From Candidatus Harrisonbacteria bacterium (GTDB lineage: Bacteria; Patescibacteriota; Minisyncoccia; UBA6257; 1-14-0-10-44-23), in NCBI GenBank assembly GCA_023255625.1, contig JAHFLF010000001.1:431771-495770 (forward strand): DNA of 64,000 nt, written 5' to 3'. The notes under the pieces were generated by a model. The model was given only the letters and a program-made list of their open reading frames with translations, had not been told where the DNA came from and searched no databases. This document shows positions 13,454 through 44,828 of the stretch, in pieces (the first letter of the stretch is position 1; every line of letters begins with the position of its first letter). A program made the position numbers and the translations under genes.

Positions 13454-13572
13454 TGCCCGTGCGCGATTATGTGAAGACGGCACCGGGCATATTTTTCTGG
13501 TGAAAAATCGGTCTATACTCTCGCGCCGTCGCGCTGCGAGAATTGCCGCTATCACATAATCGCGCACGGGCA
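13454..13572. repeat. structured repeat family 'GACGGCACC-core', copy A
   Basis: 21-bp flank pair tgcccgtgcgcgattatgtga / tcacataatcgcgcacgggca enclosing the core gacggcaccgggcatatttttctggtgaaaaatcggtctatactctcgcgccgtcgcgctgcgagaattgccgct. Starts 9 nt after the mreB stop. Confidence 0.7.
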
Positions 13573-13626
13573 GTTCTGCAATTTTGTTGTTAAAAATAAG
13601 TTTTTGGGGAGGAGGTGAGGGGAGGG

Positions 13627-13664
13627 GAAAAAAGAACGGCCCCGCGCGACGATGTCGCGCGGGG
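13627..13664 (-). terminator. rho-independent terminator (minus strand)
   Basis: Minus-strand stem ccccgcgcgac/gtcgcgcgggg followed by CCGTTCTTTTTT. Terminates the small Zn-ribbon ORF transcript. Confidence 0.6.
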
Positions 13665-13757
13665 TTCGTCCGCTGCAGAAGCGCTTCTGCGCACCCACCA
13701 CTTTTACGGCTCTAGCCGCAGGGCTCGGTGGCTCCCTTCAGATATATTCGCTCCGGG

Positions 13758-13922
13758 CTAGTACTCGGGCTCTGCCGCGAGTTCCGCGCGGAACTCGTCG
13801 TAGCACGGTTTGCATGCCTGGCCGGGCTCTTCCCCTCGTACCGACGAGGGGATTCGGTATCCTCCCTCGCCAGGAGGGATGTCGTGACCGCAGAAATCGC
13901 ACTTCTCCATGGGCTCCTCCAT
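13758..13922 (-). CDS. 54-aa CxxC..CxxC zinc-ribbon protein (MEEPMEKCDFCGHDI...CKPCYDEF...), hypothetical
   Basis: Hand-translated minus-strand ORF in a GC-rich island. GGAGGA precedes the second Met. Its own terminator lies downstream. Could instead be part of a structured RNA. Confidence 0.35.
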   Translation of the reverse strand: MEEPMEKCDFCGHDIPPGEGGYRIPSSVRGEEPGQACKPCYDEFRAELAAEPEY

Positions 13923-14015
13923 TTCCGAGTGAGTTGCTCGGAATATTTATATTATAGCATTAAAATATATAATTGTCAATATCCATTCAGCCCATAAATC
14001 CTGTATTATTCAAAC

Positions 14016-14801
14016 ATGGCGACCATTGCTTCACTAGAAAGAGATTTTAAAAATCTCGTTAAACATGAGGCGCTTGCGCAGGCGTATGTTTTGCATGGGC
14101 CGGGCGGGGCGGTGCAGTTTGAGTTTGCAAAGGGGCTGGCATATTTTTTAGAAACCGGAGACTGGGCTGGTCCAACTAACCAACTAACTAAGCAACCAAC
14201 TAACCAAATTTTGTTGGATGCAAAATTTGTTGACGGCACCGCGCAGGATTTGGGAGTTGATGTGACTCGTGAGTTTAGTGAATTTTTATATCGCCAGCCG
14301 GTGGCAAGTCCACGCAGGACACTGGTGATTAACAGCGCGGCTGAATTTACCGACCGGGCGCAGAATGCAATTTTAAAGATTGTTGAGGAGCCGCCAAGTC
14401 ATGCGCTGATTATTCTGACAGTTCGCGATGTGAATTCGCTGCTGCCGGCGCTGCGGTCGCGGTTGCAGAAGGTGTGGGTGGCTGCAAGCGGCACGCTGCA
14501 AGAATCAAGCGAGGAGAGGCGAGCCAATGAATTAGTTGAGCAGTTTTTTCTCTCTGCGCCTGGCGAGCGAAGTAAATTAGTGAAAGCACTGATTGACGAG
14601 GATAAAGAACTGAAAGAAAAAGAAATAAAAAGCGAGCAAATTGCAGATCACTTCGTGCGTGCGCTGATTGTCGAACTTGCCAAAAAGCCGGAGCAGAATT
14701 GGCAGGCGCTCAAGGAGTTATTAAAGCGCCAGACGGCCATGGGGGATTACACGACGAGCCGGAAGTTGCAGCTGGAGGCCGCGCTTCAGTATTTGAAATA
14801 A
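14016..14801 (+). CDS. holB: DNA polymerase III subunit delta'
   Basis: AAA+-like N-terminus and conserved NAILKIVEEPP ... LPALRSR block of HolB. Confidence 0.8.
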   Translation: MATIASLERDFKNLVKHEALAQAYVLHGPGGAVQFEFAKGLAYFLETGDWAGPTNQLTKQPTNQILLDAKFVDGTAQDLGVDVTREFSEFLYRQPVASPRRTLVINSAAEFTDRAQNAILKIVEEPPSHALIILTVRDVNSLLPALRSRLQKVWVAASGTLQESSEERRANELVEQFFLSAPGERSKLVKALIDEDKELKEKEIKSEQIADHFVRALIVELAKKPEQNWQALKELLKRQTAMGDYTTSRKLQLEAALQYLK

Positions 14802-14805
14802 GCAA

Positions 14806-14920
14806 CGATGCGAATATACTAATGTACAAATGATACGAATGTATACAAATGTTTCCGTTCCCTGTATATTCGTATTATTAGTATAATTTGTACGAATTTG
14901 TATATTTGCATCGCGCACTC
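14806..14920. repeat. ~110-nt imperfect AT-rich palindrome between holB and frr
   Basis: gatgcgaatatactaatgtacaaatgatacgaatgtatacaaatg ... mirrored by ...catttgtatacattcgtatcatttgtacattagtatattcgcatcg on the opposite strand. Contains a TATAAT-like box. Confidence 0.45.
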
Positions 14921-14923
14921 ATT

Positions 14924-15475
14924 ATGGATTCCATCCTCAAGGATTTTGAAAAGTCAGTCGCGGCAATACTTTCGGCTCTTTCCGGCGAGCTTGGTTCGGT
15001 GCGCACAAGCCGGCCGAGCCCGCAGCTGATTGAGGATTTGAAAATTGATTACATGGGGACTTTGATGGCCGTGAAGCAGCTTGGTTCAATCAGCATCATC
15101 CCGCCGCGGGAGATGGCGATTAGTTTGTGGGATGCCAGCGGCGTAACAATAGTTGCCAAGGCGCTGGAGGATGCAAAGCGGGGATTTACAGTTTCGGTGC
15201 GGGGCGGAGCAATCTATATTGCTTTGCCGCCACTTTCCCAGGAACGGCGCGATGAGATGAGCAAACTGGCAAAAAGTATAGCCGAGATATATCGGATTAA
15301 AATCCGCGGTGCTCGGGAATCGGCGAACAAGCAACTACAAGTGGGCAAGCAGGCAAAGACTTTGACTGAAGACATGGAGACGCGTGGCAAGAAAAAAGTT
15401 CAGGAGGTTACCGAGAAGGCAAACAAGGATATTGAAGCAGCAGTTGAGAAAAAAGTTAGGGAGATTGCTGAATAA
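14924..15475 (+). CDS. frr: ribosome recycling factor
   Basis: RRF family conservation throughout. Start taken at MDSILKDFEK; the track ORF begins 12 codons earlier. Confidence 0.9.
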   Translation: MDSILKDFEKSVAAILSALSGELGSVRTSRPSPQLIEDLKIDYMGTLMAVKQLGSISIIPPREMAISLWDASGVTIVAKALEDAKRGFTVSVRGGAIYIALPPLSQERRDEMSKLAKSIAEIYRIKIRGARESANKQLQVGKQAKTLTEDMETRGKKKVQEVTEKANKDIEAAVEKKVREIAE

Positions 15476-15476
15476 T

Positions 15477-15782
15477 ATGAGCAAGACGCCAGAGGAGACA
15501 CTGTCAGGGCCAGCAGAGGTTATCAAGAGAGGTTTGACTGATGCAAAGACCGGCCTTGGGCAGATTGAGGTAGAACGGGGGAATGTTGTTGGCACGGCTC
15601 TTGCTGCTCTGCAGCTTGCACGCGATATGATCCCGACTGATGATGCTGATTTACGCGCACGCATTGATACTATTGTGAGTATGAATGATTCCAGGCAGCG
15701 CGCAGCCGAGCCCATAAAAGACGAGGTGGTTGAGACTGTCCGCGGCTTGATTGACGAAGTTCTTGGTAAGTTGCAGGGTTAG
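15477..15782 (+). CDS. hypothetical 101-aa protein
   Basis: Starts 1 nt after the frr stop (MSKTPEETLS..). The longer track ORF 15384.. overlaps frr out of frame and is rejected. Confidence 0.45.
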   Translation: MSKTPEETLSGPAEVIKRGLTDAKTGLGQIEVERGNVVGTALAALQLARDMIPTDDADLRARIDTIVSMNDSRQRAAEPIKDEVVETVRGLIDEVLGKLQG

Positions 15783-15793
15783 ACATTTTACTT

Positions 15794-16840: not shown

Positions 16841-16858
16841 AATACGATTCATTTAATT

Positions 16859-16908
16859 ATTTCTGACTATGTTACAGTGTACTAGTACACTGTAACATAG
16901 TCAGAAAT
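16859..16908. repeat. 50-nt perfect palindrome
   Basis: atttctgactatgttacagtgtac tag tacactgtaacatagtcagaaat, immediately after rseP. Confidence 0.7.
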
Positions 16909-16963
16909 CAAAGACCGAAATGATGAGAGAGTAGAGAGGCGTGGAAAAGAATAATTTTGTTTC

Positions 16964-17005
16964 ATAAAAATAGTGCGAGCCGTCCCAAGTTCATCGGGAC
17001 GGCTC
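16964..17005 (-). terminator. rho-independent terminator (minus strand)
   Basis: Minus-strand stem gagccgtccc/gggacggctc plus GCACTATTTTTATG, downstream of the small TM ORF. Confidence 0.55.
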
Positions 17006-17527: not shown

Positions 17528-18781
17528 ATGAAACAAAGCCAGCTATTTACAAAAACTCGCAGAGAGCCACCAAGCGATGAGGTCGCAAAAAACGCGCAGC
17601 TTTTGATTCGTGCCGGATATATTCACAAAGAGATGGCGGGAGTGTACGCGTACCTTCCTTTGGGTTTGCGCGTTCTGAATAATGTTTCCAGAATTATTCG
17701 CGAAGAGATGAATGCCATCGGCGGCATTGAGATTCAGATGACCGCGCTGCAGGACAAAGAGAAGTGGGTCAAGAGTAATCGGTGGGATGACGCCGTGGTT
17801 GATGTATGGTTTAAGACTGCGCTCAAAAATGATGCTCAACTTGGTCTTGGTTTCACGCACGACGAAGCGCTGATTGATATTTTGAAAAATTATATTGCCT
17901 CGTACAAAGACCTGCCCCGGTATATTTATCAGATCCAGACAAAATTTCGCAATGAACTGCGTTCCAAAAGCGGCATTATGCGCGGACGCGAGTTTTTGAT
18001 GAAAGATCTGTATTCTTTTACTCGCACACAGCAGGAGCTTGATGCATTTTATGAAAAGGTCCAGCGGGCGTATCACAATGTGTTTCGCCGTTGCGGTATC
18101 GGCGACTCCACCTATCTTACATTCTCAAGCGGAGGAACATTCAGCCAGTTTTCGCATGAGTTCCAAACTATTTCTGATGCAGGCGAGGATGTTATTTATG
18201 TTGATCAGGCAAAAAAGATTGCTGTGAATAAAGATGTACTGAATGACGAGGTGCTTAAAGGTTTGGGGCTTACACGATCTAACCTGGTTGAAAAAAAGGC
18301 AATTGAAGTTGGCAATATTTTTCGGCAGGGAACTCGTTTTACCGATGCGCTTGGCGTGTATTACGCTGACGAAAAAGGTGAGCGGCAGTCTTTATATATG
18401 GGCGGGTATGGGATTGGCGTGAGTCGTGTTGTTGGCACTATCGTTGAGGTGCTGGCTGATGACAAAGGATTAGTTTGGCCCAAAGAGGTGGCGCCATTTG
18501 CGGTGCACCTTATCGCAATCGCGGGGAAAAGCGGAGAGAAGGTCAGTGCTGCCGCCGATAATTTGTACGCTGATTTAGAGAAAGCCGGCGTTGAGGTTTT
18601 GTATGATGATCGCGATGTTTCGGCCGGCGGAAAATTAGCGGATGCTGATCTGATTGGTATTCCGACGCGCATTGTTATTTCTGAAAAGACCCTAGAAAAA
18701 GATTCTGTAGAGGTTAAAGAGCGGGCGAGCGGAGAGACGAAGATGGTGGCGCTTTCAGTTGCGATAGATCATTTTGCTTAG
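17528..18781 (+). CDS. proS: proline--tRNA ligase, short form lacking the editing (INS) domain
   Basis: Class II aaRS motifs, ProRS-type N-terminus (LLIRAGYIHKEMAGVYAYLPLG) and C-terminal anticodon-binding domain. 417 aa versus ~570 for INS-containing enzymes. Confidence 0.9.
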   Translation: MKQSQLFTKTRREPPSDEVAKNAQLLIRAGYIHKEMAGVYAYLPLGLRVLNNVSRIIREEMNAIGGIEIQMTALQDKEKWVKSNRWDDAVVDVWFKTALKNDAQLGLGFTHDEALIDILKNYIASYKDLPRYIYQIQTKFRNELRSKSGIMRGREFLMKDLYSFTRTQQELDAFYEKVQRAYHNVFRRCGIGDSTYLTFSSGGTFSQFSHEFQTISDAGEDVIYVDQAKKIAVNKDVLNDEVLKGLGLTRSNLVEKKAIEVGNIFRQGTRFTDALGVYYADEKGERQSLYMGGYGIGVSRVVGTIVEVLADDKGLVWPKEVAPFAVHLIAIAGKSGEKVSAAADNLYADLEKAGVEVLYDDRDVSAGGKLADADLIGIPTRIVISEKTLEKDSVEVKERASGETKMVALSVAIDHFA

Positions 18782-18851
18782 CGGTTGGCCATATATTTTT
18801 ACAGCCGGGCTCATCGCAAGCGAATGGCTGTAAAAATATATGGCCAACCGC
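18781..18851. repeat. long hairpin H2 (GGGCTCA-loop family)
   Basis: cggttggccatatatttttacagcc [gggctcatcgcaagcgaatgg] ctgtaaaaatatatggccaaccg. Confidence 0.7.
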
Positions 18852-18860
18852 TACCTTTGG

Positions 18861-18941
18861 TTTAGAATTCCGCAGTTTGTGTTTTTGCGGCCGGGCTCAT
18901 CCTTCGGAATGGCCGAAAAACACAAACTGCGGAATTCTAAA
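18861..18941. repeat. long hairpin H3 (GGGCTCA-loop family)
   Basis: tttagaattccgcagtttgtgtttttgcggcc [gggctcatccttcggaatgg] ccgaaaaacacaaactgcggaattctaaa. Tandem with H2. Confidence 0.7.
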
Positions 18942-19040
18942 ATCTGCTTGCGCGCTTATTTTGTTTGGTATATAAAGAAACTGTTGGCTACCATCAAGTT
19001 CTGTCTGGTGACAGAGGGAGGTGGGGCTACATTTCAGGAG

Positions 19041-19763
19041 ATGGAGGATTTGATGCTTAGCTGGAGCAATATCGGTGTCCCGGTGCAGGATGTTCAGGTA
19101 GTGGGGCCGGAAGTCTTCCTGAATGTCCCAGTATTCCGGCAGACGAGCGCTGCCGGAAGAGCTCGTCTTGCCGAATGCGGCTGTGTTCGGCGGCTGAACC
19201 GAGGAGAGAGGGTCTTCCGGATCGGCGATCCGGTGGAGAAGCTGGCCATCGTTCTGGATGGTCGCATCCAGTGCGGCCGCGAGAACCGCGGGCGACCATG
19301 GGTCAGCACCATCACGGAGGTTGGTGGAGTCGTGTCTCTCGCTGGATGCCTGGTCGGAGGGAATTGGCCGGCGGGTGCCATCGCGCTCACCGCGGCCTCG
19401 GTGGTGGAGATTCCTCGCGATGTCTTCATGACGCTGATTCACGAGGATCGTGAATTGGTAGAGGCGCTTCTCCTTGCGGTTGCACGGGAGGCGCTCGACG
19501 CCGAGGCGATGTGCGCGGCATTCGCACTTCAGACCCCAGAGCAGAGGGTCGCCGCGTTCCTGATTGGACTGGTAGGCGAGAGTGACTCTGCCGTGCTGCC
19601 AGATACACAGGCGCGCCTGGCTGCACAGCTCGGGACCGTTCGCGAGTGCTTTGGGAGGGCCATGCGCAGTCTCGTGGATAAAGGGGTGATCACTCGCTCG
19701 GGGATTTACGGCAAGAGCTTCCGGATCATCAACCGCGAGTATCTCGAGCTGCTCGCGAGCTGA
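19041..19763 (+). CDS. Crp/Fnr family transcriptional regulator (cNMP-binding + C-terminal HTH)
   Basis: cNMP-binding beta-roll pattern (FRIGDPVEKLAIVLDGRI) and HTH (TQARLAAQLGTVRECFGRAMRSL). Start taken at MEDLMLS, preceded by AGGAG; the track ORF's N-terminus is translated through hairpins H2/H3. About 65% GC, unlike neighbouring genes. Confidence 0.75.
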   Translation: MEDLMLSWSNIGVPVQDVQVVGPEVFLNVPVFRQTSAAGRARLAECGCVRRLNRGERVFRIGDPVEKLAIVLDGRIQCGRENRGRPWVSTITEVGGVVSLAGCLVGGNWPAGAIALTAASVVEIPRDVFMTLIHEDRELVEALLLAVAREALDAEAMCAAFALQTPEQRVAAFLIGLVGESDSAVLPDTQARLAAQLGTVRECFGRAMRSLVDKGVITRSGIYGKSFRIINREYLELLAS

Positions 19764-19883: not shown

Positions 19884-20933
19884 ATGAGGAATCCTTTCAG
19901 GTTTTTTCGGCACAATATTGGTATTGATCTTGGTACAGCCAACACGCTTATTTATTTAAGCGGCCGGGGAATTGTCATCAACGAGCCGACTGCTGTGGCT
20001 GTTAATACAAAAACCAATAAAGTTGTTGCTATCGGACATGAGGCCAAGCAAATGCTCGGGCGAACGCCGCAACATATGAATGTGGTCAAGCCGCTTAGCG
20101 GTGGCGTGATCAGTGACTTTGAAATGGCGCAGGAGATTTTGCGGCAGTTTTTAAAAAAGTTGGCTAAAGATAATACTTTTGCTTATTACCAAAATGCGGT
20201 GGTTGGCGTGCCGGCTGATTTAACGGAAGTTGAACGCAAGTCGGTTGAGGACGCGGTTATCGGTGCCGGCGTGAGTCAGGCCTATGTGATTGAGTCGGCG
20301 CTGGCCTCGGCACTGGGTGCAAGACTACCGGTTGGCGACCCGGTTGCCAACATGATTATTGATATTGGCGGCGGCACAACAGAGATCGCGATTATTTCCA
20401 TGGGCGGCGCGGTAACCATCAAGAGTTTAAAAATTGGTGGCGATAAATTTAATGAGGATATCATTAAGTTTGTGCGGGACGAGTTCCAGTTGATTATCGG
20501 TGAGCCGACTGCCGAGCAGATTAAAATCGAGCTGGGCAGCGCTATTCCGATAAATGATAAGCTGGAGCTGGCTATATCCGGCCGCGATCTGCTGACTGGT
20601 TTGCCCAAAGAGGTCATTCTAAAAGATATGCATGTTCGTGCCGCAATTAATAAATCGCTGCGGCAGATTGTGGACGCTGCGAAAGAGGTGATTGAAAAGG
20701 CGCCGCCGGAGTTAGCCGGCGATCTGCTCCGGCGCGGAGTTTCGATGTGCGGCGGCGGCAGTTTATTGCGTGGAATCGATCAGCTGATGAGCAAGGAGCT
20801 GGCGACAACGGTCACGGTGGTTGACGATCCTTTAACTTGTGCGGCGCGCGGAGCCGGTATCGCCGTAGAAAATTTAGAAAAATACGATTATATTTTAAAT
20901 AGTCCGATGCGGCCGAGAGACATCAAATTGTAA
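19884..20933 (+). CDS. mreB: rod shape-determining protein MreB/Mbl paralog
   Basis: IGIDLGTANT N-terminus and MreB blocks. Second copy in the window, followed by mreC/mreD/PBP2. Confidence 0.85.
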   Translation: MRNPFRFFRHNIGIDLGTANTLIYLSGRGIVINEPTAVAVNTKTNKVVAIGHEAKQMLGRTPQHMNVVKPLSGGVISDFEMAQEILRQFLKKLAKDNTFAYYQNAVVGVPADLTEVERKSVEDAVIGAGVSQAYVIESALASALGARLPVGDPVANMIIDIGGGTTEIAIISMGGAVTIKSLKIGGDKFNEDIIKFVRDEFQLIIGEPTAEQIKIELGSAIPINDKLELAISGRDLLTGLPKEVILKDMHVRAAINKSLRQIVDAAKEVIEKAPPELAGDLLRRGVSMCGGGSLLRGIDQLMSKELATTVTVVDDPLTCAARGAGIAVENLEKYDYILNSPMRPRDIKL

Positions 20934-20934
20934 T

Positions 20935-21032
20935 TTTAAATTTCTAATTTCTAATTTTCAAACAATGATGCAATGTCTTAATTGGAAAATTTTAAAATTG
21001 TTTAGAAATTGTAAATTGTAAATTGAAAATTA
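20935..21032. repeat. GAAATT-type AT-rich module as an inverted repeat pair ('empty cassette' configuration)
   Basis: aatttctaatttctaattttcaaacaatg ...25 nt... ttgtttagaaattgtaaattgtaaattgaaaatt. The inner part reads as the mini-ORF MMQCLNWKILKLFRNCKL*. Confidence 0.7.
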
Positions 21033-21791
21033 TTGTACCCCATGCCACGGTCTCCATTAATTATTGCCCTTGCAACTTTCAGCTTTCTTTTTGTTGTCGG
21101 GCAATTTTTTTTCGTGCCGAAAACTGCATTGAATTCAGTCGTGCTGACTGCGCTTTCTGCTCCGCGCGTTTTTTTTAGCGCATTGCGTAATAAACATAAG
21201 CTTGTAACTCAACTTAGTGATCTGGCCATAGAAAATCAGGCCTTGCGCGGGGAGCTGGCTGGCGCTCTTTCCCTGCCAAGAATTATTGAAGAGAGCAAAC
21301 AAGAGTATCTGCGGGCGATTGTCTATTCTTCTTATCCTTTAACCAGTGCTAAAACTCTGACGATCGGAGCTGGTGCAGCGCAGGGTGTTGGCTTAGGAAT
21401 GCCCGTGGTGGTTAAGCCGGGACTTTTTATCGGTGAGGTGTGGCGTGTTTTTGGACAGCAGAGTAGCGTGCATACCGTTTTTGACAGTGCGGAGTCTGCC
21501 ACCAGCACTGTTTGGCAACTTTCTGTTAAGGTCGGCAAAAATAATACAGATGCGCTGCTCATTGCCGGTCTTGAGCCGCGACTGACTATTATTTCCAGGA
21601 AAAAAGGTGTGACTGTTGGTGATGAGGTTCGGCTGGCCGGAAAACAGTATCCATATGGGCTCTCGATTGGCACAGTGGGCGCGGTCATTGACGATCCAGG
21701 GAATATTTTTTTGGAGGCGACTCTGGCTGTTCCCTATTCAATCGCCGATTTAGACGAGCTTTTTGTGATTCTACCAAAAAAGCCATTATAA
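21033..21791 (+). CDS. mreC: rod shape-determining protein MreC
   Basis: N-terminal TM, coiled-coil, C-terminal beta-rich MreC domain pattern. Position directly after mreB. Confidence 0.7.
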   Translation: MYPMPRSPLIIALATFSFLFVVGQFFFVPKTALNSVVLTALSAPRVFFSALRNKHKLVTQLSDLAIENQALRGELAGALSLPRIIEESKQEYLRAIVYSSYPLTSAKTLTIGAGAAQGVGLGMPVVVKPGLFIGEVWRVFGQQSSVHTVFDSAESATSTVWQLSVKVGKNNTDALLIAGLEPRLTIISRKKGVTVGDEVRLAGKQYPYGLSIGTVGAVIDDPGNIFLEATLAVPYSIADLDELFVILPKKPL

Positions 21792-26508: not shown

Positions 26509-26904
26509 ATGGAACTGGCGAAGGTGAAACGAAAGGATTTGATATACCCAGAACTAAGTTATCAGATTCTTGGTTGTGCCTTTGCTGTTTTCAATGAGAT
26601 TGGTCCAGGACAGCTAGAGAATGTGTATCATAAAGCGCTGATGATCGCGCTCAAAAATGATGGAGTCGGTGCGGTTACTCAAGCATATAGCTCTATTCAT
26701 TTTCAGGGCGAGGTAGTTGGCAAGAATTTTTTCGATATTCTTGTAGATGGGAAAATTATCGTTGAGCTAAAAAGGAATTCTTCCTTCTCACGCGACCATA
26801 TTGCGCAGGTTACGAGATATTTGAAAGCGAGTAATCTTACATTAGCTCTCTTAGTTAACTTTGGTACTAATGGTGTACAATGTAAGCGTATTTTGAATCT
26901 ATGA
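26509..26904 (+). CDS. GxxExxY family protein (23S rRNA intervening-sequence protein-like, PD-(D/E)xK-related)
   Basis: N-terminal ELSYQILGCAFAVFNEIGPGQLENVYHKAL contains the G-x-x-E-x-x-Y signature; typical ~130-aa size. Confidence 0.75.
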   Translation: MELAKVKRKDLIYPELSYQILGCAFAVFNEIGPGQLENVYHKALMIALKNDGVGAVTQAYSSIHFQGEVVGKNFFDILVDGKIIVELKRNSSFSRDHIAQVTRYLKASNLTLALLVNFGTNGVQCKRILNL

Positions 26905-29880: not shown

Positions 29881-30063
29881 CCGTGTGTTCACGGAGAGTA
29901 TTGACAAGCGAGTTTGGCTAAGATCGGCAGGGATACATTTTACCGCCGCCTTTAGCCAAACTCGCTTGTCTTCAATCACAATGTTTATTTGCGGCACAGC
30001 GATTTGTTGTGCCAAGAATTTGCTTGCTTTGTCATTAAAATTTATGCTTAAATAAGCCGTATC

Positions 30064-31422: not shown

Positions 31423-31822
31423 TTTTTTTGTGAGGAAATACAAACCTCTCCCCAAGATGAGCAGATAAGATATTTGGCAGGAAAACCAATGCAAAGTCTG
31501 CACCAAGATGAGCAGGGATACCTTTTACTGCTCCCTATGGTGCGGACTTTGCATTGGTTGGGGTGTTGCGCTTACTTGTTGGACTCACGATTTTCTTGGC
31601 TGGGTGCATTTTCCTGGTTATCGGGTACTACGGAGCGCCGCGCGAAAGCGCATGATGCGGACAATTGCCGAAAAACCCGAGCGGGCTGTATTTGTTTCTT
31701 ACAATGGTTTGCTCTGGCACGGCAATACATACAAAATATTGCAGCAGCTAAAAAATGAGTATTGGTTAAGATCCGGGGGTTCGGGGGTGGTATGATAAGT
31801 ATGCGGATTTGCGCCGCTTGTT

Positions 31823-34744: not shown

Positions 34745-35653
34745 TTGGCCACAACATTTTTACGAATTCTAAAATACGGGTTTCAGAGTTTCTGGCGTAA
34801 CGGCTGGCTTTCGATGGCGACCGTCCTGGTTATGGTGCTTGCCCTTATGACAATGCAGGCGCTCATGCTTTTTAATGTCGGTACGACTACGGCCGTGGCC
34901 GCTATACAGGATAAAATTGATATCGCAGTTTATTTCAAACGAGCGGCCAGCGAGGATAGCATGCTGGCTCTCAAGAAAACTGTTGAACGGCTGCCGCAGG
35001 TAAAAAATGTTGAATATGTTTCTAGCGATGAGGCGCTTGCGGATTTTAAGCAGAGGCATTTAACCGATTTAACAATCAACCAGGCGTTGGCCGAATTAAA
35101 CCAAAACCCGCTGCCCGGATCGTTAAACATCAAGGCCAATGATCCAAATGATTACGCCCTGATTGCGGCATATCTTGATAAAAATGCTCCGGCCGGACTG
35201 ATCGAAAAAGTTACCTATAGCCAGCACAAAAACGCTATCGACCGGCTGAATAAATTTGTCGATACTCTGAACCGAATGGGGCTTGCGGTTACCTTGTTTT
35301 TGGCTTTTGCCGCCAGCTTAGTGGCCTTCAATACAATCCGGCTGGCGATTTATTCCAACCGCGACGAGATTGGTATTATGCGGCTAGTTGGCGGTTCGAA
35401 TATGTTTATCAAAGGGCCGTATCTGGTTACCGGGATTATGTATGGATTTTTTGGCGCGCTCGTAGCGATTATCTTGATGGCACCGATTGCCAATATTATT
35501 AATCCATATCTGGTTCGGCTAGTGCCGGAGGTTCAGTTGGAAACTTATTTTTATGCTCACATTTTTCCGCTTTTCGGCTATATGATGCTTTTCGGGGCAG
35601 GGTTGGGAATTATTTCCAGCTGGATAGCAACTCGGAGGTATTTGCGCGTCTAA
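34745..35653 (+). CDS. ftsX: cell division permease FtsX
   Basis: TM1 - large periplasmic loop - three C-terminal TMs, FtsX-like blocks. Partner of ftsE. Confidence 0.85.
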   Translation: MATTFLRILKYGFQSFWRNGWLSMATVLVMVLALMTMQALMLFNVGTTTAVAAIQDKIDIAVYFKRAASEDSMLALKKTVERLPQVKNVEYVSSDEALADFKQRHLTDLTINQALAELNQNPLPGSLNIKANDPNDYALIAAYLDKNAPAGLIEKVTYSQHKNAIDRLNKFVDTLNRMGLAVTLFLAFAASLVAFNTIRLAIYSNRDEIGIMRLVGGSNMFIKGPYLVTGIMYGFFGALVAIILMAPIANIINPYLVRLVPEVQLETYFYAHIFPLFGYMMLFGAGLGIISSWIATRRYLRV

Positions 35654-35758
35654 TAATTGCCCAGACGGCACCGTCCATATTTTTCTGGTGAAAAATCGGT
35701 CTATACTCTCGCGCCGTCGCGCTGCGAGAATTGCCGCTAGGGCAATTATTAGACGCGC
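35645..35758. repeat. structured repeat family 'GACGGCACC-core', copy B
   Basis: Flanks gcgtctaataattgccc / gggcaattattagacgc (includes the ftsX stop codon). Core nearly identical to copy A. Confidence 0.75.
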
Positions 35759-35796
35759 AAACTAGACCTCCTTCATAAAAAAGCGAGGGATTTTAC

Positions 35797-35927
35797 TCAA
35801 GATGAGCAGGGATACCTTTTACTGCTCCCTATGAGAAAAATTTTGCTGGTTTAGAAATTAGAAATTGAAAATTAGAGATTCCCGCAGGGTTTTTAACCGC
35901 AAAAGACGCGGTTAAAAACCCTGCGGG
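35797..35927. repeat. composite: CAAGATGAGCAGGGATACC hairpin motif, GAAATT module, and 20-bp terminator hairpin overlapping the stop of the converging surface-protein gene
   Basis: caagatgagcagggataccttttactgctccctatg (also at 31498..31535). gtttagaaattagaaattgaaaattagagatt. cccgcagggtttttaaccgc aaaagac gcggttaaaaaccctgcggg. Confidence 0.6.
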
Positions 35928-37495
35928 TCGTATCCTTCTTCTGCCGGAAGAATAGTTTTTTCTTTTTTAAATTTCCAAATTGCCAGCCAGCCGAACAAAG
36001 CAATGACGGCCAGGATGCCGCCGCCAACTCCAAATCGCAGTGCAATTTGTTTTTTGATGACGGTTATGCTTTGAGATGGAGCTACTTTCGTGTAGGTTTC
36101 ATCTGCACCAACACCGTAAACGATCACATGATGTACGCCGGAGGTCAGCCCGGGAATTTCTTTAGAATGTTCTCCGGCCGGTACTCTGATGCTCCTTTCT
36201 AAGTTATGGTCATAATCAAAAATATCGATGCGATAACCATTCATCGGTTCGCCATTTGACGGGCTTTGCCATATAAAATTAGTGTTATTACTGCGCATGC
36301 CCGGGCCAATAGTTAATTCCTGGCTCTGGCCGATTGTGACAGGAGCATTTCCGCTTCCTGGCGCTCCTGTATTCGAGTTTGTAGAAGCAGACTGCCCACC
36401 GGATGAGGGCGCTGCTGTGTTAGAATTTGCCGGCGGATTTGTCGATTGATTTGTTTGGGCTGGAGTATTTGTATTAGTTGGTGTAGTTGGCTGGGTGTTA
36501 TTGGCCGGTGGTTGCACTGCGTTGTTAGTCGGCTGCTGGCTGTTTGCCGGCGGTTGCGTATTAACGGGAGTTTGCTGGGAGGCGATTGGAGTGCTGAAGC
36601 CGATTGTGTATGTGGTTAAGATTATGCTTTCTCCCTGGTTGCTAAAAATATCTGCAAAATAATTTACTCCGGGTATCAGCCCGTTAACTGTGATTGTGTG
36701 TTCGAGTTCCAGGGTCGGGTCTGTGGCGCTCGTAAAAATAAAATTTGGATTGAGTTGTGTTCGGATAGAGACACGGGAGTCAGCGGCGATGTTTGTTGTC
36801 CAGGAAAAAGTTGCCGAGGTTGCCGTAGTGTTTACGACACGAGCGTTGGTTATAGTAACATAGGACTGCTGCGGTGTGCTGGCGACCGGGGTTGAGCTGG
36901 CGGTAATTTGATCCGGATCCGTAAAAATGTAGTCCGCGCCGCTCTCTGCGGGCGCATAGAGGGCAAGTTTAAAGGTAAAGGGTTGTAGAGCCGGCCCGAT
37001 TTTAGCCGCGCCATGACTATATTGGCTAACAAAGGTTTGGTTGTGATCAAGCGTTAAAATCCGGTCAGCGCTATACAGGCCAAAGTTGGGCAAATCTGAT
37101 TCTATCTGGAGCGTATATGTTCCTGTGGCGCTAATTGCTATCGGTGTAGTCAGATTCACATGGAATTTGTATCCTCCGGGAATTTCGGCCAGGTGAGGAA
37201 GCGTAACATTGCGTACGGCAAGCTGATGAACCTCATCAGAGAGTCGTAATGTGAGGGGCCCATCCTCGCCAGTGTTATCAACCCAGAGATCAAAACCCGT
37301 CATTAAAGCGTTTACTCCAGGCGCAAAAATTTCATAGACCGGCCCAGCAGCCGAGGAGAATTCAAACCGTTGCGAGGCCCAGCCGTCTGGGGCAAAGGCG
37401 AAAAAGACAGCGTCGGCGGCGAGCGCCGGAGCAGTAGACAGTAGTAAGTAGACGGTAGACAGTATGAGAATAAAAAAGCGAGATGGGCGGTTCAT
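35912..37495 (-). CDS. cell-surface protein: signal peptide, beta-rich (FN3-like) domains, Thr/Pro/Gln/Asn-rich linker, C-terminal TM anchor
   Basis: N-terminal signal peptide, long low-complexity PTQ/N linker, C-terminal hydrophobic helix followed by KFKKEK. Confidence 0.55.
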   Translation of the reverse strand: MNRPSRFFILILSTVYLLLSTAPALAADAVFFAFAPDGWASQRFEFSSAAGPVYEIFAPGVNALMTGFDLWVDNTGEDGPLTLRLSDEVHQLAVRNVTLPHLAEIPGGYKFHVNLTTPIAISATGTYTLQIESDLPNFGLYSADRILTLDHNQTFVSQYSHGAAKIGPALQPFTFKLALYAPAESGADYIFTDPDQITASSTPVASTPQQSYVTITNARVVNTTATSATFSWTTNIAADSRVSIRTQLNPNFIFTSATDPTLELEHTITVNGLIPGVNYFADIFSNQGESIILTTYTIGFSTPIASQQTPVNTQPPANSQQPTNNAVQPPANNTQPTTPTNTNTPAQTNQSTNPPANSNTAAPSSGGQSASTNSNTGAPGSGNAPVTIGQSQELTIGPGMRSNNTNFIWQSPSNGEPMNGYRIDIFDYDHNLERSIRVPAGEHSKEIPGLTSGVHHVIVYGVGADETYTKVAPSQSITVIKKQIALRFGVGGGILAVIALFGWLAIWKFKKEKTILPAEEGYDPQGF

Positions 37496-37523: not shown

Positions 37524-37647
37524 GTATCGGCCCCGCGGTTTTGCCGCAGACCGGCACCGGCTATCTTTTTCTGCTGAAAAAGCGCCTGCTCTCGGCCTCC
37601 TCGGCCTGCGAGAGTGCCGCCTAGCGGCAAAACCGCTGGGCCGATAC
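37524..37647. repeat. structured repeat family 'GACGGCACC-core', copy D (diverged)
   Basis: Flanks gtatcggcccc..gcggttttgccgc / gcggcaaaaccgc..gggccgatac. Core gaccggcaccggctatctttttctgctgaaaaagcg... with compensatory changes in the inner hairpin (ctttttc/gaaaaag versus atttttc/gaaaaat). Confidence 0.65.
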
Positions 37648-37655: not shown

Positions 37656-38306
37656 TTAGATATTCTGGCGGTGGTAGTCGCCAAGGTGTGCGTGGTCGTT
37701 GAGTGTCACGATGTGCCAGTTTTTTCCGTCATAGTCAGCGACCGTGATGCCGGTATTATGCATTGAGGTAGTATTAAAAAGATCGCGGAACAGTTTTGCT
37801 GGAACTTCGGGGCCATGGATGATAGTTGCAAAAAGTACGCGCAGGAAGTGTCCGTGGCTGATCACCGCAATATTGTTATATGTTTGGTTGAGCGTTACGG
37901 CGAAATTTAAAAATGCAACTGCTCGGGCACGGACATCAATAAAGCGTTCTTCTGTGGTGTCTCGGAATTCTGGATCTGATAATTCTTTTTCAATCAGGAG
38001 GTCTTTTACTTTTTGGATTTCGGGGTTGTCGCGGGATTTTCCGGTGAGCACCGAGCCCCATTTTTTTTCAACAAGTAGGGGATTGTGTGTGATAGGAATT
38101 TTTTTGACCGCAGAAATATACTCTGCAGTTTGTTGAGCGCGTATATAAGGGCTTGCGAGAATATAATCAACGGGGATTGATTCAAAACGATGGGCTAAAA
38201 ACTCCGCCTGTTTCTTCCCGAGCGCCGTCAGATTTTCTTCAGGGCCTTGGAAAATATGCGTAAGATTACCCTCTGATTGACCATGTCTGACTAAGTAGAG
38301 CTTCAT
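37656..38306 (-). CDS. histidine phosphatase family protein (phosphoglycerate mutase-like)
   Basis: N-terminal LVRHGQSEGN (RHG catalytic motif) and a second His near the C-terminus (ISHGHFLR). Confidence 0.8.
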   Translation of the reverse strand: MKLYLVRHGQSEGNLTHIFQGPEENLTALGKKQAEFLAHRFESIPVDYILASPYIRAQQTAEYISAVKKIPITHNPLLVEKKWGSVLTGKSRDNPEIQKVKDLLIEKELSDPEFRDTTEERFIDVRARAVAFLNFAVTLNQTYNNIAVISHGHFLRVLFATIIHGPEVPAKLFRDLFNTTSMHNTGITVADYDGKNWHIVTLNDHAHLGDYHRQNI

Positions 38307-38309
38307 ACG

Positions 38310-41207: not shown

Positions 41208-41576
41208 ATGCGCCCGTTTACTGTCGTTCGGCCGTGGGGCAGTTTTCGCCGTTTTGATCCGGGCCAGATTGTGGCGGTTAAAATTATGCGGATTAATCCA
41301 AATGCACGGGTTAGTTTGCAGTATCATAATCATCGGAGTGAGTTTTGGTACATTATAAGTGGCCGGCCGAAGATTACAATTGGGAAAAAGACAGTAACGG
41401 CCAGGGCCGGACAGGAATTTAAGATTGGTAAAAAAGTTATGCATCGGGTTGCGGCCGGGAAACAGGAGGCGGTTTTTTTGGAGATTTGGTTTGGCCGGGC
41501 CGACGAGACTGACATTGTCAGGATTCAAGATGTATATGGTCGAGCAGGGACGCGGCCAACGAGTAATAAAAAGTGA
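41208..41576 (+). CDS. cupin domain protein (phosphomannose isomerase type II C-terminal-like)
   Basis: RPWGSF N-terminal motif and cupin His/Glu pattern (QYHNHRSEFWYIISG). Confidence 0.6.
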   Translation: MRPFTVVRPWGSFRRFDPGQIVAVKIMRINPNARVSLQYHNHRSEFWYIISGRPKITIGKKTVTARAGQEFKIGKKVMHRVAAGKQEAVFLEIWFGRADETDIVRIQDVYGRAGTRPTSNKK

Positions 41577-42730
41577 AGAATATGGTGCAGCGAGTAAAAA
41601 AACGAGTAAAAAAAATAGCGAATAAGCCGATTAGGAAATTTTTGGTGCGCCAGCGCGTATCATCAAAAACCAGCGTCAAGAAAAAAGTTCGTTCAAAGGT
41701 TAAGAAAGTTGTACCCAAGCAAAAGAAGAAAGCGCTTTTGTTGGCGAGGCATCAGGAAAATCCGGTTATTCAGCCGGGCGGACATGCTTGGGAGGCGCGG
41801 GCAACATTTAACCCGGCCGCCGTTAGTCATCAGGAAAAAGTACATGTTTTGTATCGGGCGATTGGCGACGATGATCGCTCCGTTCTTGGTTATGCTTCAA
41901 GTGAAGACGGCTATAAGTTAAGCGGGCGCTACCACCACCCCGCTTACGATTATTTTCCTGGTCGGTCGGCTCCGGGTACACCAAAACTGCATTACTCCTC
42001 CGGAGGCGGAACAAGCGGCGGCTGCGAGGATCCTAGAATGACGATTCTCGATGATCGCGTGTATTTAATTTATACGGCTTTTGACGGCTGGGGATCGCTT
42101 CGGCTCGCGCTAACTTCTATTAGTTTAGCTGATTTTACTGCGCAGCGCTGGAGCTGGAAAGAGCCGGTGCTGATTTCTCCGCCCGGGCAGATCAATAAAA
42201 ATTGGGCACTTTTTCCGGAGAAAATTAATGGGCAGTATGCGCTGCTTCATAGTATTTCGCCAGCGGTGCAGATTGCCTATTTCAAAAGTTTAGACGAGTT
42301 AGACGGGGCGCATTTTGTGCAGAGCGTTTATCAAAGCGGCGGCGCTCGCAAGGGCGACTGGGACAGCTGGGTGCGCGGCATCGGGCCGCCACCCCTCAAA
42401 ACAGATTATGGCTGGCTGGTTCTTTATCATGCGATGGATTTTCGCGATCCGAATCGCTATAAGCTGGGCGCGATGATTCTGGACTTAAAAAACCCGACTA
42501 AGATTTTATATCGCGCGCAGCAACCGATTCTGGAGCCAGATGAGCATTATGAAAATCAGGGGTTTAAGTCCGGCGTAGTTTACTCCTGCGGCGCGGTTAT
42601 CAAGAACGGAGAACTCATCGTTTACTACGGCGGCGCCGACACCGTCGCCTGCATCGGCTCCGTCAACCTGAATAGTTTTTTAAAAGAGCTCGTTGCGAGC
42701 GGGCGGCCAAGGTTAATAAGTCGGTCGTAG
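41573..42730 (+). CDS. glycoside hydrolase family 130 (DUF377 glycosidase/phosphorylase-like) with Lys-rich N-terminal extension
   Basis: GH130 block HAWEARATFNPAAV..VHVLYRAIGDD..SVLGYASSEDG, preceded by ~55 aa of K/R-rich low complexity. Confidence 0.7.
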   Translation: MKNMVQRVKKRVKKIANKPIRKFLVRQRVSSKTSVKKKVRSKVKKVVPKQKKKALLLARHQENPVIQPGGHAWEARATFNPAAVSHQEKVHVLYRAIGDDDRSVLGYASSEDGYKLSGRYHHPAYDYFPGRSAPGTPKLHYSSGGGTSGGCEDPRMTILDDRVYLIYTAFDGWGSLRLALTSISLADFTAQRWSWKEPVLISPPGQINKNWALFPEKINGQYALLHSISPAVQIAYFKSLDELDGAHFVQSVYQSGGARKGDWDSWVRGIGPPPLKTDYGWLVLYHAMDFRDPNRYKLGAMILDLKNPTKILYRAQQPILEPDEHYENQGFKSGVVYSCGAVIKNGELIVYYGGADTVACIGSVNLNSFLKELVASGRPRLISRS

Positions 42731-42744
42731 AAATCCTGAATTAT

Positions 42745-44676
42745 ATGCCACTAACATTCGAGCGCTCCGAAGAAAATCCAATTTTGGTGCCGCGTTTTGA
42801 TGAGGAGTGGGAGCAGCAAGGCGCTTTTAACGGCTGCGCCGTAGATGATGGCGGGACGATTCATTTTGTGTACCGCGCACAAAGTGCGCAACAGGATTTT
42901 CATGGCGCCCAAATCAGCGTCTCTACTATAGGTTATGCCAGGAGCGAAGATGGTATTCATTTTACTGATCGCCGGCAGCTTATTGTTCCGAGCGAGCCAT
43001 GGGATCGTTTTGGCTGCGAGGATCCGCGGGTTACTAAGATCGGCGATACATATTATATTTTTTATACCGCCCTTTCCGAATATCCGTTTCGGGCCGAAGG
43101 AATCAAAGTTGCAGTTGCGATTACGAAAGATTTCAAAAAGATCATCGCCAAACATTTAGTAACGGCTTTTAATGCAAAGGCGATGGCTCTTTTTCCGGAC
43201 AAAGTCAGCGGTAAATATGCCGCGATTTTGACGGTGCATACGGATATGCCGCCGGCCAACATCGCCCTTGCGTGTTTTGAGAAGATTACCGACATCTGGT
43301 CGCCTGATTATTGGAGCGCTTGGTATGCACAGATGCCGGCGCACCTGATCACGCTTGGCAGGGGTTTGTCTGATCACATAGAGGTTGGTGCGCCGCCAGT
43401 TAAAACAAAAAATGGTTGGCTGATCTTCTTTTCCTATATCGAGAATTATTTTCACCCGCCGGCCAATTTTGGCGTCCAGGCGGCTCTTTTGGATTTGCGC
43501 AATCCTCAAAAAATAATCAGCCGAATAAAGAGTTCTTTGATCTCGCCGAAAGAGGAGTATGAACGATATGGTTTTGTGCCCAATATTACCTTTCCCTCCG
43601 GCGCAATCGTGCGTAAGCGACAGGTGTGGCTTTACTACGGTGCCGCAGATACCTGTTGTGCCATGGCCAGGTTGCCGCTCCAGAGAATTTTGGATGAGCT
43701 GCTTGCGCCGCCGCAGCGCGTTGCAGCTCTCATTCGTTCAGCAGAGAATCCAATTATGAGGCCGGTCCCAGGTCACGAGTGGGAGTCGAAAGCAGTTTTT
43801 AATCCGGCGGCAATTTATTTAGATGGTAAGGTGCATATTGTTTATCGGGCGATGTCATCAGATAACACCTCGGTTTTTGGCTATGCGGTTAGCAATGATG
43901 GATTTACTATCAGCGAGCGATTGCCAGAACCGATTTATGTTCCGCGCGAATCCTACGAGCAGAAACTTGTACCCGGCGGTAACTCCGGCTGCGAGGATCC
44001 GCGATTAACTCAAATCGGGCAGACTATATACATGTGCTATGTTGCCTTTGATGGCAGGAATCCGCCGCGGGTGGCACTAACCTCTATTTCTGTTTCTGAT
44101 TTTCTGAATCGCAAGTGGAATTGGGCACATCCCAAATTAATTTCAGAGTCCGGCCGCGACGACAAAGATACTGCGCTTTTCCCGCGTCTGCTTGGCGGTA
44201 AATATGCTTTTCTGCACCGGCTTGGTGAGAGTATCTGGCTTGATAAAGTCGATTCACTTGAGAGGGATTGGCAGCAGCAGCCGCTTGGCGGTTCGGTGAT
44301 TATGAATCCAAGGGCGACAGTTCACGATAGCCGAAAAATTGGTATTGCTGGGCCGCCGATTGAGACTCCGGCTGGCTGGCTGCTTATTTATCACGGTGTT
44401 TCGCGCAGAGAAGATCATCATTACCATTTGCGCGCCGCGCTGCTCGATAAAAATAATCCGACCAAAATTTTAGCCCGGACAAAAGATGAAATTTTAGATA
44501 CCGAGACCCCATACGAGCGATACGGAATTGTTCCAAATGTTGTTTTCTCCTGCGGACAGGTTGTGCTCGGAGACCAGCTAATTGTTTATTACGGCGCGGC
44601 CGACACAGTGATTGGCGTTGCTTCAATGCCGCTTAACGAACTAATGATGAAGTTGAGGAGTGAAAAGGAAAGATAG
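42745..44676 (+). CDS. tandem double GH130-domain protein
   Basis: Two copies of the WE..FN..AV...HF/IVYRA...S..GYA.S.DG pattern (near residues 20-300 and 340-640). Confidence 0.7.
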   Translation: MPLTFERSEENPILVPRFDEEWEQQGAFNGCAVDDGGTIHFVYRAQSAQQDFHGAQISVSTIGYARSEDGIHFTDRRQLIVPSEPWDRFGCEDPRVTKIGDTYYIFYTALSEYPFRAEGIKVAVAITKDFKKIIAKHLVTAFNAKAMALFPDKVSGKYAAILTVHTDMPPANIALACFEKITDIWSPDYWSAWYAQMPAHLITLGRGLSDHIEVGAPPVKTKNGWLIFFSYIENYFHPPANFGVQAALLDLRNPQKIISRIKSSLISPKEEYERYGFVPNITFPSGAIVRKRQVWLYYGAADTCCAMARLPLQRILDELLAPPQRVAALIRSAENPIMRPVPGHEWESKAVFNPAAIYLDGKVHIVYRAMSSDNTSVFGYAVSNDGFTISERLPEPIYVPRESYEQKLVPGGNSGCEDPRLTQIGQTIYMCYVAFDGRNPPRVALTSISVSDFLNRKWNWAHPKLISESGRDDKDTALFPRLLGGKYAFLHRLGESIWLDKVDSLERDWQQQPLGGSVIMNPRATVHDSRKIGIAGPPIETPAGWLLIYHGVSRREDHHYHLRAALLDKNNPTKILARTKDEILDTETPYERYGIVPNVVFSCGQVVLGDQLIVYYGAADTVIGVASMPLNELMMKLRSEKER

Positions 44677-44704
44677 CGATCACTGTGCGCAGTATTTTTT
44701 ACCT

Positions 44705-44828
44705 GCAGTTTGCCGTCAGACGGCACCGGGGTTATTTTTCTGCTGAAAAATCCCCCTACATCTCCCGCCGTCGCGGTCCGATAGTTGCCGCGTAGACGGC
44801 AAACTGCAGGTAAAAAATTAACGGCTCG
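44705..44828. repeat. structured repeat family 'GACGGCACC-core', copy C
   Basis: Flanks tttttacctgcagtttgccgtc / gacggcaaactgcaggtaaaaaa. Lies between convergent genes and overlaps the 3' end of the dgkA-like ORF. Confidence 0.7.

Follow-up and report, generated by a model that had tools for sequence, protein, structure and literature searches.

The 64,000-nucleotide stretch of DNA analyzed here over its whole length (the window) belongs to Candidatus Harrisonbacteria bacterium, a member of the Patescibacteriota (GenBank assembly GCA_023255625.1, contig JAHFLF010000001.1, positions 431,771 to 495,770 of the forward strand). Next to the ends of genes such as mreB and ftsX it carries four copies, A to D, of a non-coding element designated family 1, in which a conserved core of 76-77 nucleotides (nt) sits at the tip of a long stem built from copy-specific arms of 21-24 base pairs (bp). 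A pattern spanning 22 bases of this core, GGCACCG-N6-TTTTTCTG-N-TGAAAAA, finds four exact matches in the window, all on the + strand, and no others at up to 3 mismatches, for 0.01 expected by chance. Several families of hairpin-tip modules, family 1 among them, occur in Paceibacteria-like Patescibacteria, and the hairpin-tip architecture matches no described repeat or RNA family. The positions of the copies, together with those of the related features discussed below, are collected in Table 1.

An earlier sequence-only reading of the window had drawn attention to the four copies, which were all located on the + strand, and Pfam confirmed the gene names mreB and ftsX that it had used; the limits it had given were about 10 nt off for copy D and about 4 nt off for copy B. 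Copy A begins 8 nt past the stop codon of mreB, in the sense orientation. The left arm of copy B includes the last codons of ftsX and the stop codon, the presence of which in the stem had been correctly recognized. Copy C, previously placed between convergent genes, is actually flanked by two tandem minus-strand genes, encoding His_Phos_1 (37656-38306) and a protein with fn3 domain (35912-37495), and is antisense to both of them. Copy D lies between the convergent genes GH130 (+) and DAGK (-), the latter encoding a diacylglycerol kinase, and the stop codon of DAGK begins with the final base of its right arm. The compensatory changes CTTTTTC/GAAAAAG and CTCTC/GAGAG, attributed at first to the fourth copy, do exist but are carried by the third one (37524).

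The cores of copies A and B are identical at 75 of 77 positions, the two differing positions being adjacent, while their arms are unrelated, so that the core has spread between loci as a unit. It has been copied between unrelated flanks, as had been supposed from the similarity of A and B; a simple duplication together with identical flanks is contradicted by the uniqueness of the arms. Each family-1 arm matches only its own partner when compared by blastn-short with all sampled sequence, and in copies A-D no copy-specific loop residue is left between the arms and the core. The idea that the arms could be copies of distant sequence ("spacers") was rejected, every arm matching its own partner alone.

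Beyond the window, three more copies, E, F and G, bring the family to seven distinct members; E and F represent diverged copies from other Patescibacteria. In a metagenome scan performed with a loose variable-gap pattern, three of the 120 loci among the matches listed were real (L011, and L083 with its independent counterpart L101). A covariance model of family 1, built as the earlier reading had proposed and scanned over 200 kb of related sequence, retrieves each of the seven copies without any other match. Further members beyond the sampled copies certainly exist. The GTDB species genomes gave nine matches to the core pattern, all due to chance and devoid of the 3' half, and nothing resembling family 1 was found in viral contigs, phage records and plasmid records. 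Searched against Rfam 15 at the gathering threshold, the window yields tRNAs only, and in E-value mode copies A and B and family 2 return generic microRNA-precursor hairpins far below threshold and nothing else; the core matches no Rfam family. Known ribozymes (hammerhead, twister and others) and tRNA-like elements were rejected, being without Rfam support. An artefact of assembly or amplification was also discarded, the same hairpins occurring in independent samples (L137; L083 versus L101). A literature search on Patescibacteria elements of such a type and on repeats with conserved loop and variable stem returned nothing relevant.

Every family-1 copy adopts the same predicted three-way junction, the z-scores relative to shuffled sequences ranging from -4.9 to -9.1. 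Going inward, the long stem is followed by a bubble of 3x3 or 4x4 (AGA/CTA or AGAC/CCTA) and by a 5-bp helix P1 (CGGCA/TGCCG), atop which stand P2, a 7-bp stem closed by a loop of 4-5 nt, and P3, in which an outer helix is separated by a TGC bulge from an inner 4-bp G+C helix. Over the seven copies, 91.3% of the cells expected to pair do so, compared to 42-52% when the partners are slid by 1-3 columns. Double-sided changes occur in 15 of the 20 pairs, and none of 500 shuffles reaches the observed values, these counts resting on seven sequences in an alignment fitted to the model. The strongest individual example is copy G, which has CTGCGCG/CGCGCAG in P2 where copy C has CTTTTTC/GAAAAAG, with place and length unchanged, and its P1 reads CGGCC/GGCCG, whereas its P3 matches that of copy C base for base. 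Unpaired junction residues, namely GGCACC and the TGC bulge, are kept across the copies. P2 is A/T-rich and P3 G/C-rich, the two being dissimilar. The fold of the core is conserved and its covariation, already noticed in the first four copies, is real. A folded transcript of the whole element is predicted at -57 to -78 kcal/mol.

At least two further module families share the same architecture, with a conserved tip borne on unique arms. Family 2, of pattern GGCC-GGGCTCA-(3-bp stem, tetraloop)-AT-GGCC, occurs four times in the window and once in the relative L134. Family 3, of pattern AGAT-CGGCA-GGGATACCTTTTAC-TGCCG-CCTA, occurs at 29903, 31484 and 35800 as well as just to the right of the window, and is also found in L136. 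It has bubble and P1 in common with family 1, a plain 14-nt loop taking the place of P2 and P3, and this base is therefore common to family 1 and a second family. In two family-3 copies P1 reads GAGCA/TGCTC, a double compensatory change, so that P1 covaries as well. The module AGATGAGCA-CCTTTGGACTCAAG-TGCTCCCT of the relative L138 displays once again the same base, bubble and P1, with another loop. As families 1 and 3 and the L138 module share bubble and P1, the base is constant and the interior exchangeable, and the base is most likely the part relevant to propagation.

Table 1. Positions of family-1 copies, of the other tip modules and of one hairpin without module (window coordinates unless an L number is given).
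Feature	Position	Strand	Arms and core	Context
Family-1 copy A	13454-13572	+	21-bp perfect arms 13454-13474 / 13552-13572; core 13475-13551	
Family-1 copy B	35641-35761	+	22-bp perfect arms 35641-35662 / 35740-35761; core 35663-35739	
Family-1 copy C	37524-37647	+	arms 37524-37547 / 37624-37647, 24 bp with 1 mismatch; core 37548-37623	
Family-1 copy D	44694-44818	+	24-bp perfect arms 44694-44717 / 44795-44818; core 44718-44794	
Family-1 copy E	L011 4951-5086			metagenome contig; follows the RNase HII gene of a Patescibacteria organism
Family-1 copy F	L101 10986-11101 (= L083)			two independent Candidatus Harrisonbacteria contigs; 9 nt past uvrA
Family-1 copy G	L144 12705-12829			second contig of the window's own genome; 10 nt past uvrA
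Family-2 module GGCC-GGGCTCA-CCCTGCGGG-AT-GGCC	9687..9766	+	31-bp perfect arms	between divergent genes
Family-2 module	18779..18853	+	28-bp perfect arms	left arm begins with the TAG stop of the tRNA-synt_2b gene
Family-2 module	18861..18941	+	26-bp perfect arms	tandem with the module at 18779
Family-2 module	62646..62719	+	23-bp perfect arms	11 nt past a stop codon; identical in independent sample L137
Family-3 module (A)GAT-CGGCA-GGGATACATTTTAC-CGCCG-CCT	29903..29970	+	19-bp perfect arms	23 nt past the stop of a VanW-type gene
Family-3 module AGAT-GAGCA-GGGATACCTTTTAC-TGCTC-CCTA	31484..31559	+	module 31506-31537; 15-bp perfect arms and imperfect inner arm	after the RF-1 gene
Family-3 module	35790..35841	+	core 35800-35831; ~10-bp imperfect arms	29 nt past the right arm of copy B
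Hairpin without module, loop AAAAGAC	35881..35927	.	20-bp perfect stem	right arm holds the last four codons and the stop of the fn3 gene

A few observations concern the surroundings of these modules. A partial duplicate of the family-3 5' half (CCAAGATGAGCAG) occurs at 31452-31470, 45 nt upstream of the full module at 31506-31537. An AT-rich short repeat (TTAGAAATTGTAAATTG... / TTAGAAATTAGAAATTGAAAATTAGAG) occupies two intergenic regions of the window, at 20920-21036 and at 35845-35875, where it sits between copy B and the fn3 hairpin. The open reading frame of a cNMP-binding/Crp-type regulator (18840-19763, identical to the public gene call) begins in a family-2 right arm and crosses the next hairpin; the true start of this gene probably lies downstream of 18941.

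Six relatives that have kept the gene order, with a neighboring P-type ATPase 65-71% identical, allow the same gene ends to be compared. The convergent ftsX/fn3 junction is empty in L131, L134 and L140, with a gap of 1 nt. The gap amounts to 46 nt without hairpin in L141, to 30 nt in L142, where it is occupied by a plain terminator with 18-bp arms including the last two codons and the stop of fn3, and to 91 nt in L138, which has 33-bp arms and a family-3-like module. In the window it reaches 258 nt and accommodates copy B, a family-3 module, the AT-rich repeat and a module-less hairpin. Similarly, copy C fills 124 nt of the 160 nt separating His_Phos and fn3 in the window, a distance reduced to 19 nt, an overlap, or 56 nt in the relatives. 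The end of the GH130 gene carries copy D in the window and a family-2 module in L134. The uvrA end carries copy G in the genome of the window and copy F in one Harrisonbacteria (L101, 318-nt gap), the uvrA-uvrC gap measuring only 20 nt in another one (L145); the sampled data on F and G fit orthology or independent gain. The same gene ends, uvrA, GH130 and ftsX/fn3, thus carry hairpins in different lineages, be they of the same family or of another. Such comparisons of gene neighborhoods show that the family-1 elements are insertions relative to the relatives and represent the derived state.

According to the sequence-only reading, the element could insert into pre-existing terminator hairpins, and empty sites were to be looked for in relatives. 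Empty sites were indeed found; those corresponding to copies B and C harbor no intact hairpin in three relatives, the gaps of 1 nt and 19 nt or the overlap leaving no room for one. The right arm of copy B consists, moreover, of inverted ftsX codons, no leftover loop residues are present and no U-tract follows the stems, all of which goes against the proposal. In its favor, a plain hairpin occurs at the ftsX/fn3 junction of L142, and the related module of L138 occupies the loop position of an A5-stem-T5 terminator.

The RF-1/ftsE/VanW neighborhood offers another difference between these genomes. In L134 (19063-20139), L138 (8357-9445) and L140 (8597-9574) it contains a gene coding for an RVT_1 reverse transcriptase of 325-362 amino acids, instead of which the window has a tRNA gene and two family-3 hairpins. 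With respect to a retron non-coding RNA, in which a1/a2 inverted repeats enclose msr-msd beside a reverse transcriptase gene, no RVT_1 gene was found near any copy or in the sampled ~104 kb of the roughly 0.6-Mb genome, the reverse transcriptase genes occurring only in these three relatives.

Six of the seven family-1 copies are in the sense orientation, 0-24 nt past a stop codon. Such a position would suit a purely cis-acting RNA of mRNA 3' ends, i.e., a terminator variant, an RNase III site or a stability element, the copies of which would resemble each other by selection and gene conversion without ever moving. The conserved structure with its covariation and the presence of hairpins, of the same family or of another, at the same gene ends across lineages agree with this explanation, and so do the perfect stems of 20-30 bp interrupted by a bubble, which is also how RNase III substrates look. 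We nevertheless hold it unlikely: the 97% identity of copies A and B over 77 nt, loops and junctions included, beside unrelated arms, necessitates copying from locus to locus; no U-tract follows any family-1 stem, the T-run being mostly 5'; copy C reads antisense to both neighbors; and the emptiness of the sites in close relatives implies that the element is dispensable there. Like intrinsic terminators, the elements follow stop codons and possess stable G+C-containing stems. They differ from them by "loops" of 77-85 nt instead of 3-8 nt, by the absence of a 3' U-tract and by a T-run that is often 5', and no family-1 hairpin was reported by the terminator scan; the sequences past the right arms of copies A-D read GTTCTGC, CTAGACC, TGATAGC and TAACGGC.

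The modules also display a marked strand bias. Throughout the window and in L144 the GC skew is positive, and the G-rich strand bears all 14 modules of families 1-3 in the genome of the window (two-sided p about 1e-4), as it does copy F, the family-2 copy of L134 and a family-4 copy of L138; the family-3-like module of L138 lies on the opposite, C-rich strand. Most copies being sense to the upstream gene, gene direction and replication direction are confounded in the sampled sequence; copy C and the family-2 copy located between divergent genes side with the replication strand, the family-3-like module of L138 with transcription.

Replication-strand bias, mismatched hairpin ends and the lack of both terminal inverted repeats and target duplication are characteristic of IS200/IS605-derived elements and of REP/RAYT, in which the left flank is also similar to the right end of the element, as in the paired cleavage sites of IS608. 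The modules show traits of this kind and could be remnants of a single-stranded DNA transposon of the IS200/IS605 PATE or REP/RAYT type. A Y1 HUH transposase encoded elsewhere would recognize the bubble and the P1 hairpin and paste the module, during replication, into single-stranded DNA at the tips of extruded gene-end hairpins, in which case the stems would be target hairpins that already existed or were perfected later. In this respect, the ends of the modules are conserved and their interior exchangeable, the L138 module occupies the loop position of a canonical bidirectional terminator, and TTGCC, which repeats the TTGCCG found at the 3' end of the family-1 element itself, occurs within 9 nt of the left junction in four of the nine family-1 and family-3 copies (p about 2e-6). 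This motif may correspond to a target preference, to an older outer helix of the element or to a recombination core; it is absent from copy A, and no invariant left-junction target of 4-5 nt, such as the fixed target tetranucleotide of IS200/IS605, accompanies the modules. Genes for a Y1 transposase, TnpB or RAYT were not found in the ~104 kb, P2 and P3 lack the similarity that exists between the left- and right-end hairpins of IS200/IS605, the L138 module stands on the C-rich strand, and the sites of B and C are free of any hairpin in three relatives. The complementarity of the flanks across the modules has no counterpart in either system, and an origin of this kind looks distinctly unlikely.

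The base of the modules recalls, in addition, the attC sites of integrons, which are recognized by structure, the folded strand having its central spacer unpaired, a terminal structure that varies and an asymmetry between strands (PMC2727003, PMC5027507). Both occupy gene 3' ends and fold as a single strand of 60-140 nt, with two duplex boxes, an unpaired spacer and a variable tip, the spacer and tip of the modules being represented by the AGA/CTA or AGAY/CCTA bubble and by a 14-nt loop or three-way junction, respectively; the analogy is one of shape only. A structure-specific site for a tyrosine recombinase, similar to attC or to the folded attP of CTX phage, would use the inner arm and P1 as duplex boxes around the AGA/CTA spacer. 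Its architecture would parallel the three unpaired features of attC (PMC2727003, PMC5027507), TTGCCG-spacer-CGGCA is found at both junctions of copies B, C and D, and the gene 3'-end sites and the strand bias are in line with it. The R'' RYYYAAC and R' GTTRRRY boxes are, for their part, absent at the ends of copies A-D, and the spacers differ between the two junctions. Instead of forming a cassette array, the copies are scattered behind core genes (mreB, ftsX, uvrA); no Phage_integrase match that could represent IntI occurs among the sampled genes, nor was an integrase found in the ~104 kb. Conserved and variable parts are exchanged with respect to attC, the modules associating a conserved tip with a variable stem, and the chance that they function in such a way seems very small.

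Copy B provides the most direct information on the origin of the stems. FtsX terminates with ...ATRRYLRV* in the window and with ...ATRRYLKV* in the relatives, and since this end is conserved, the codons present in the left arm of copy B are ancestral. Its right arm, GGGCAATTATTAGACGCGCAAA, is followed by 4 nt and then by ACCTCC (35766-35771), and corresponds to the reverse complement of the end codons of ftsX; it was therefore copied from the left side, as a local inverted duplication. In L138 and L142 the outermost arm bases, GGTAG/CTACC and AATCAATAA/TTATTGATT, respectively, are the last codon or codons of fn3 with the stop and their inverted copy, abutting the ftsX stop, so that arms extend until the coding sequence of the far side. 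In copies E and F, from other organisms, the arms have decayed. Arms are thus subject to decay, and perfect ones must be young or continually corrected. The 5' arms of family 1 (13454-13474, 37524-37547, 44694-44717; L144 12705-12724) are T-rich and A-poor, with a T minus A of +3 to +11, the T-run preceding the module in the reverse of terminator polarity; left arms with more T than A occur in 10 of 13 module hairpins. A T-rich left arm fits a right arm derived as its inverted copy, though it is suggestive only.

Template switching during replication is known to generate inverted repeats and make them perfect in a single step (PMC8794818, PMC5453318, PMC7202029, PMC8604942). The features of the stems match the products expected from it, and P1 could seed the fold-back. 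The same features might denote a mobile element of an undescribed kind, the inverted repeats of which would be manufactured from the target at each insertion, as an inverted target-site duplication resulting from fold-back or snap-back synthesis across the basal helix, which would supply gene ends with a perfect hairpin at once; bubble and P1 would then form a recognition module common to several families across Patescibacteria. We see this as conceivable but unlikely.

Long perfect hairpins are by no means restricted to the modules. The window contains 18 of them (perfect stems of 14 bp or more, loops no longer than 130 nt). By comparison, 100 shuffles preserving dinucleotides average 0.03, unrelated metagenome loci have about 3 per 64 kb, and two module-poor syntenic relatives have 0-1 per 21 kb. 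About half of them bear a recognizable tip module; hairpins devoid of module, with short or zero loops, are common in the window. At 1610-1670, 48628-48668 and 62093-62131, they are module-less bidirectional terminators (A-run, G+C stem, T-run) in which complementarity has been extended outward. Loop-less perfect palindromes of 38-50 bp occur at 12240-12277, 16859-16908 and 52988-53029 in the window, and another one at 2716-2749 in L144. The palindrome at 52988 (ACTATGCCCTTATTCG) is found again, with unchanged sequence, on another contig of this genome, and thus denotes a repeated site and not a local duplication.

Such abundance raises the question of a mutational by-product: rampant template switching would grow palindromes, the modules being mere seeds copied from hairpin to hairpin by inter-locus template switching at the shared P1 microhomology, with neither function nor dedicated enzyme. 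A palindrome density far above chance, the occurrence of zero-loop palindromes without module and the growth of arms until coding sequence all agree with this explanation, and so do the internal helices, which are perfect inverted repeats swapped as a whole, copies C and G sharing P3 but not P2. It has nonetheless only a small chance of being correct, as P2 and P3 hold their position and length across three genera despite sequence change, the unpaired junction residues (GGCACC and the TGC bulge) are conserved, the modules recur at the same gene ends, and the strand bias is strict.

The explanation that we favor, and to which we attribute an even chance, is that of a non-autonomous copy-and-paste hairpin-tip module with a preference for gene ends, the stem of which is made or extended by local fold-back template switching and which yields a stable, non-classical 3' RNA hairpin. 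The copied unit would be the core of ~77 nt comprising the bubble, P1, P2 and P3, and the module would land at the tip of a gene-end hairpin or within 0-25 nt of a stop codon. Rather than being carried along, the long perfect stem would be made or extended on site by template switching during replication, the nascent strand folding back across P1 and copying the flank just made in inverted orientation; the palindrome would extend in this way until the neighboring coding sequences are reached, and the same process would keep the arms perfect. Once transcribed, the element would most likely serve as the 3'-end hairpin of the upstream mRNA, as an end, insulation or stability element distinct from a classical U-tract terminator. 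The template-switch mechanism, the order of events, the mobilization of the core and the RNA function are what we infer, whereas the copying of the core from one set of flanks to an unrelated one, the conservation of its fold, the base that it shares with a second family, the locally duplicated arm of copy B, the insertion with respect to other lineages, the position at gene ends and the strand bias are shown.

Several points weigh against this scenario. Local duplication accounts for part of an arm at one family-1 locus only, and the inner 9 bp of each arm in copy B, like the inner 28 bp of each arm in L138, are untraceable to a neighboring gene. Module-less perfect hairpins being common, the stem could precede the module. 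The Pfam lists for the ~104 kb contain no transposase, integrase or reverse transcriptase. The antisense orientation of copy C to both the His_Phos_1 and fn3 genes and the location of the family-2 module at 9687 between divergent genes are misfits with a role as 3'-end RNA, and the G-U pairs of the family-1 copies favor neither strand clearly. Frequent template switching in the genome can also produce compensatory-looking changes without selection, so that covariation may overstate function.

Interspersed stem-loop repeats of bacteria comprise REP/BIME, ERIC, Correia, RUP and miniature inverted-repeat transposable elements or MITEs (PMC2229807, PMC3184786, PMC2267715). The modules resemble them in being short, non-coding, multi-copy, intergenic and non-autonomous hairpins, mostly located at gene ends and possibly co-transcribed with the upstream gene. 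All these repeats keep their stem or their terminal inverted repeats, whereas in the modules it is the tip that is conserved, each locus having a 20-30-bp stem of its own, derived at least in part from the flanking sequence. Depending on the class considered, other differences appear. MITEs share terminal inverted repeats between copies and show direct target duplications, while the arms of the modules are unique and no direct target-site duplication was found outside the arms of copies A-D; unlike in REP/REPIN, which keep an imperfect palindrome with a 5' GTAG and have a RAYT gene in the genome, the stem sequence is unconserved, and a Y1_Tnp gene was not found in the ~104 kb. Quasi-palindrome mutation by template switching, finally, generates both perfect hairpins and compensatory-looking changes (PMC8794818, PMC5453318, PMC7202029, PMC8604942, PMC13100816), but has been described as sporadic, neither as the regular companion of a repeated module nor at such a density in a bacterial genome.

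Two other groups of sequences were encountered in the same genome. Three paralogous genes coding for small PDDEXK_3 (PF13366) nucleases occur in 82 kb, at 26509-26904 (+) and 55256-55648 (+) in the window and at 11529-11939 (-) in L136, each inside a conserved gene pair (SIMPL/DivIC, pilB/pilC and def/fmt); the gene is absent at SIMPL/DivIC in L131 and L140. They are bracketed by copy-specific inverted repeats of 18-45 nt with CGAAT/ATCGC-like motifs, extending from the stop codon of one neighbor to the next start, which reproduces on a larger scale the layout of a conserved center with unique arms. These genes could encode a partner nuclease or be another passenger of the same process. A different repeat class, with ends GTCATYCYGAR...YTCRGRATGAC, is found at 5753-5866 in the window, at 11091-11171 and 12081-12100 in L138, and at ~10750-10825 and 14917-14992 in L144. 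The window copy adjoins a tRNA and has a 20-nt arm identical in L138, and two copies of ~75 nt lie in frame within the called uvrA and uvrC genes of the window genome.

Candidate-phyla bacteria possess tiny, tightly packed genomes from which almost no non-coding elements have been described, and the modules with their stems make up most of the extra intergenic DNA of this genome with respect to its relatives, e.g., 258 nt versus 1 nt at one junction. Compared to the known interspersed stem-loop repeats, the novelty resides in a conserved tip associated with a unique stem for which the flank supplies at least part of the sequence. Annotation of such elements across Patescibacteria can start from the covariance model and the shared base motif. 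The modules further make it possible to trace in nature, one site after another, how long perfect hairpins arise and grow, which bears on the origin of terminators and structured RNAs. If it is true that the stems come from the target at insertion, they would represent a new signature of transposition, invisible to annotation tools that rely on conserved inverted repeats.

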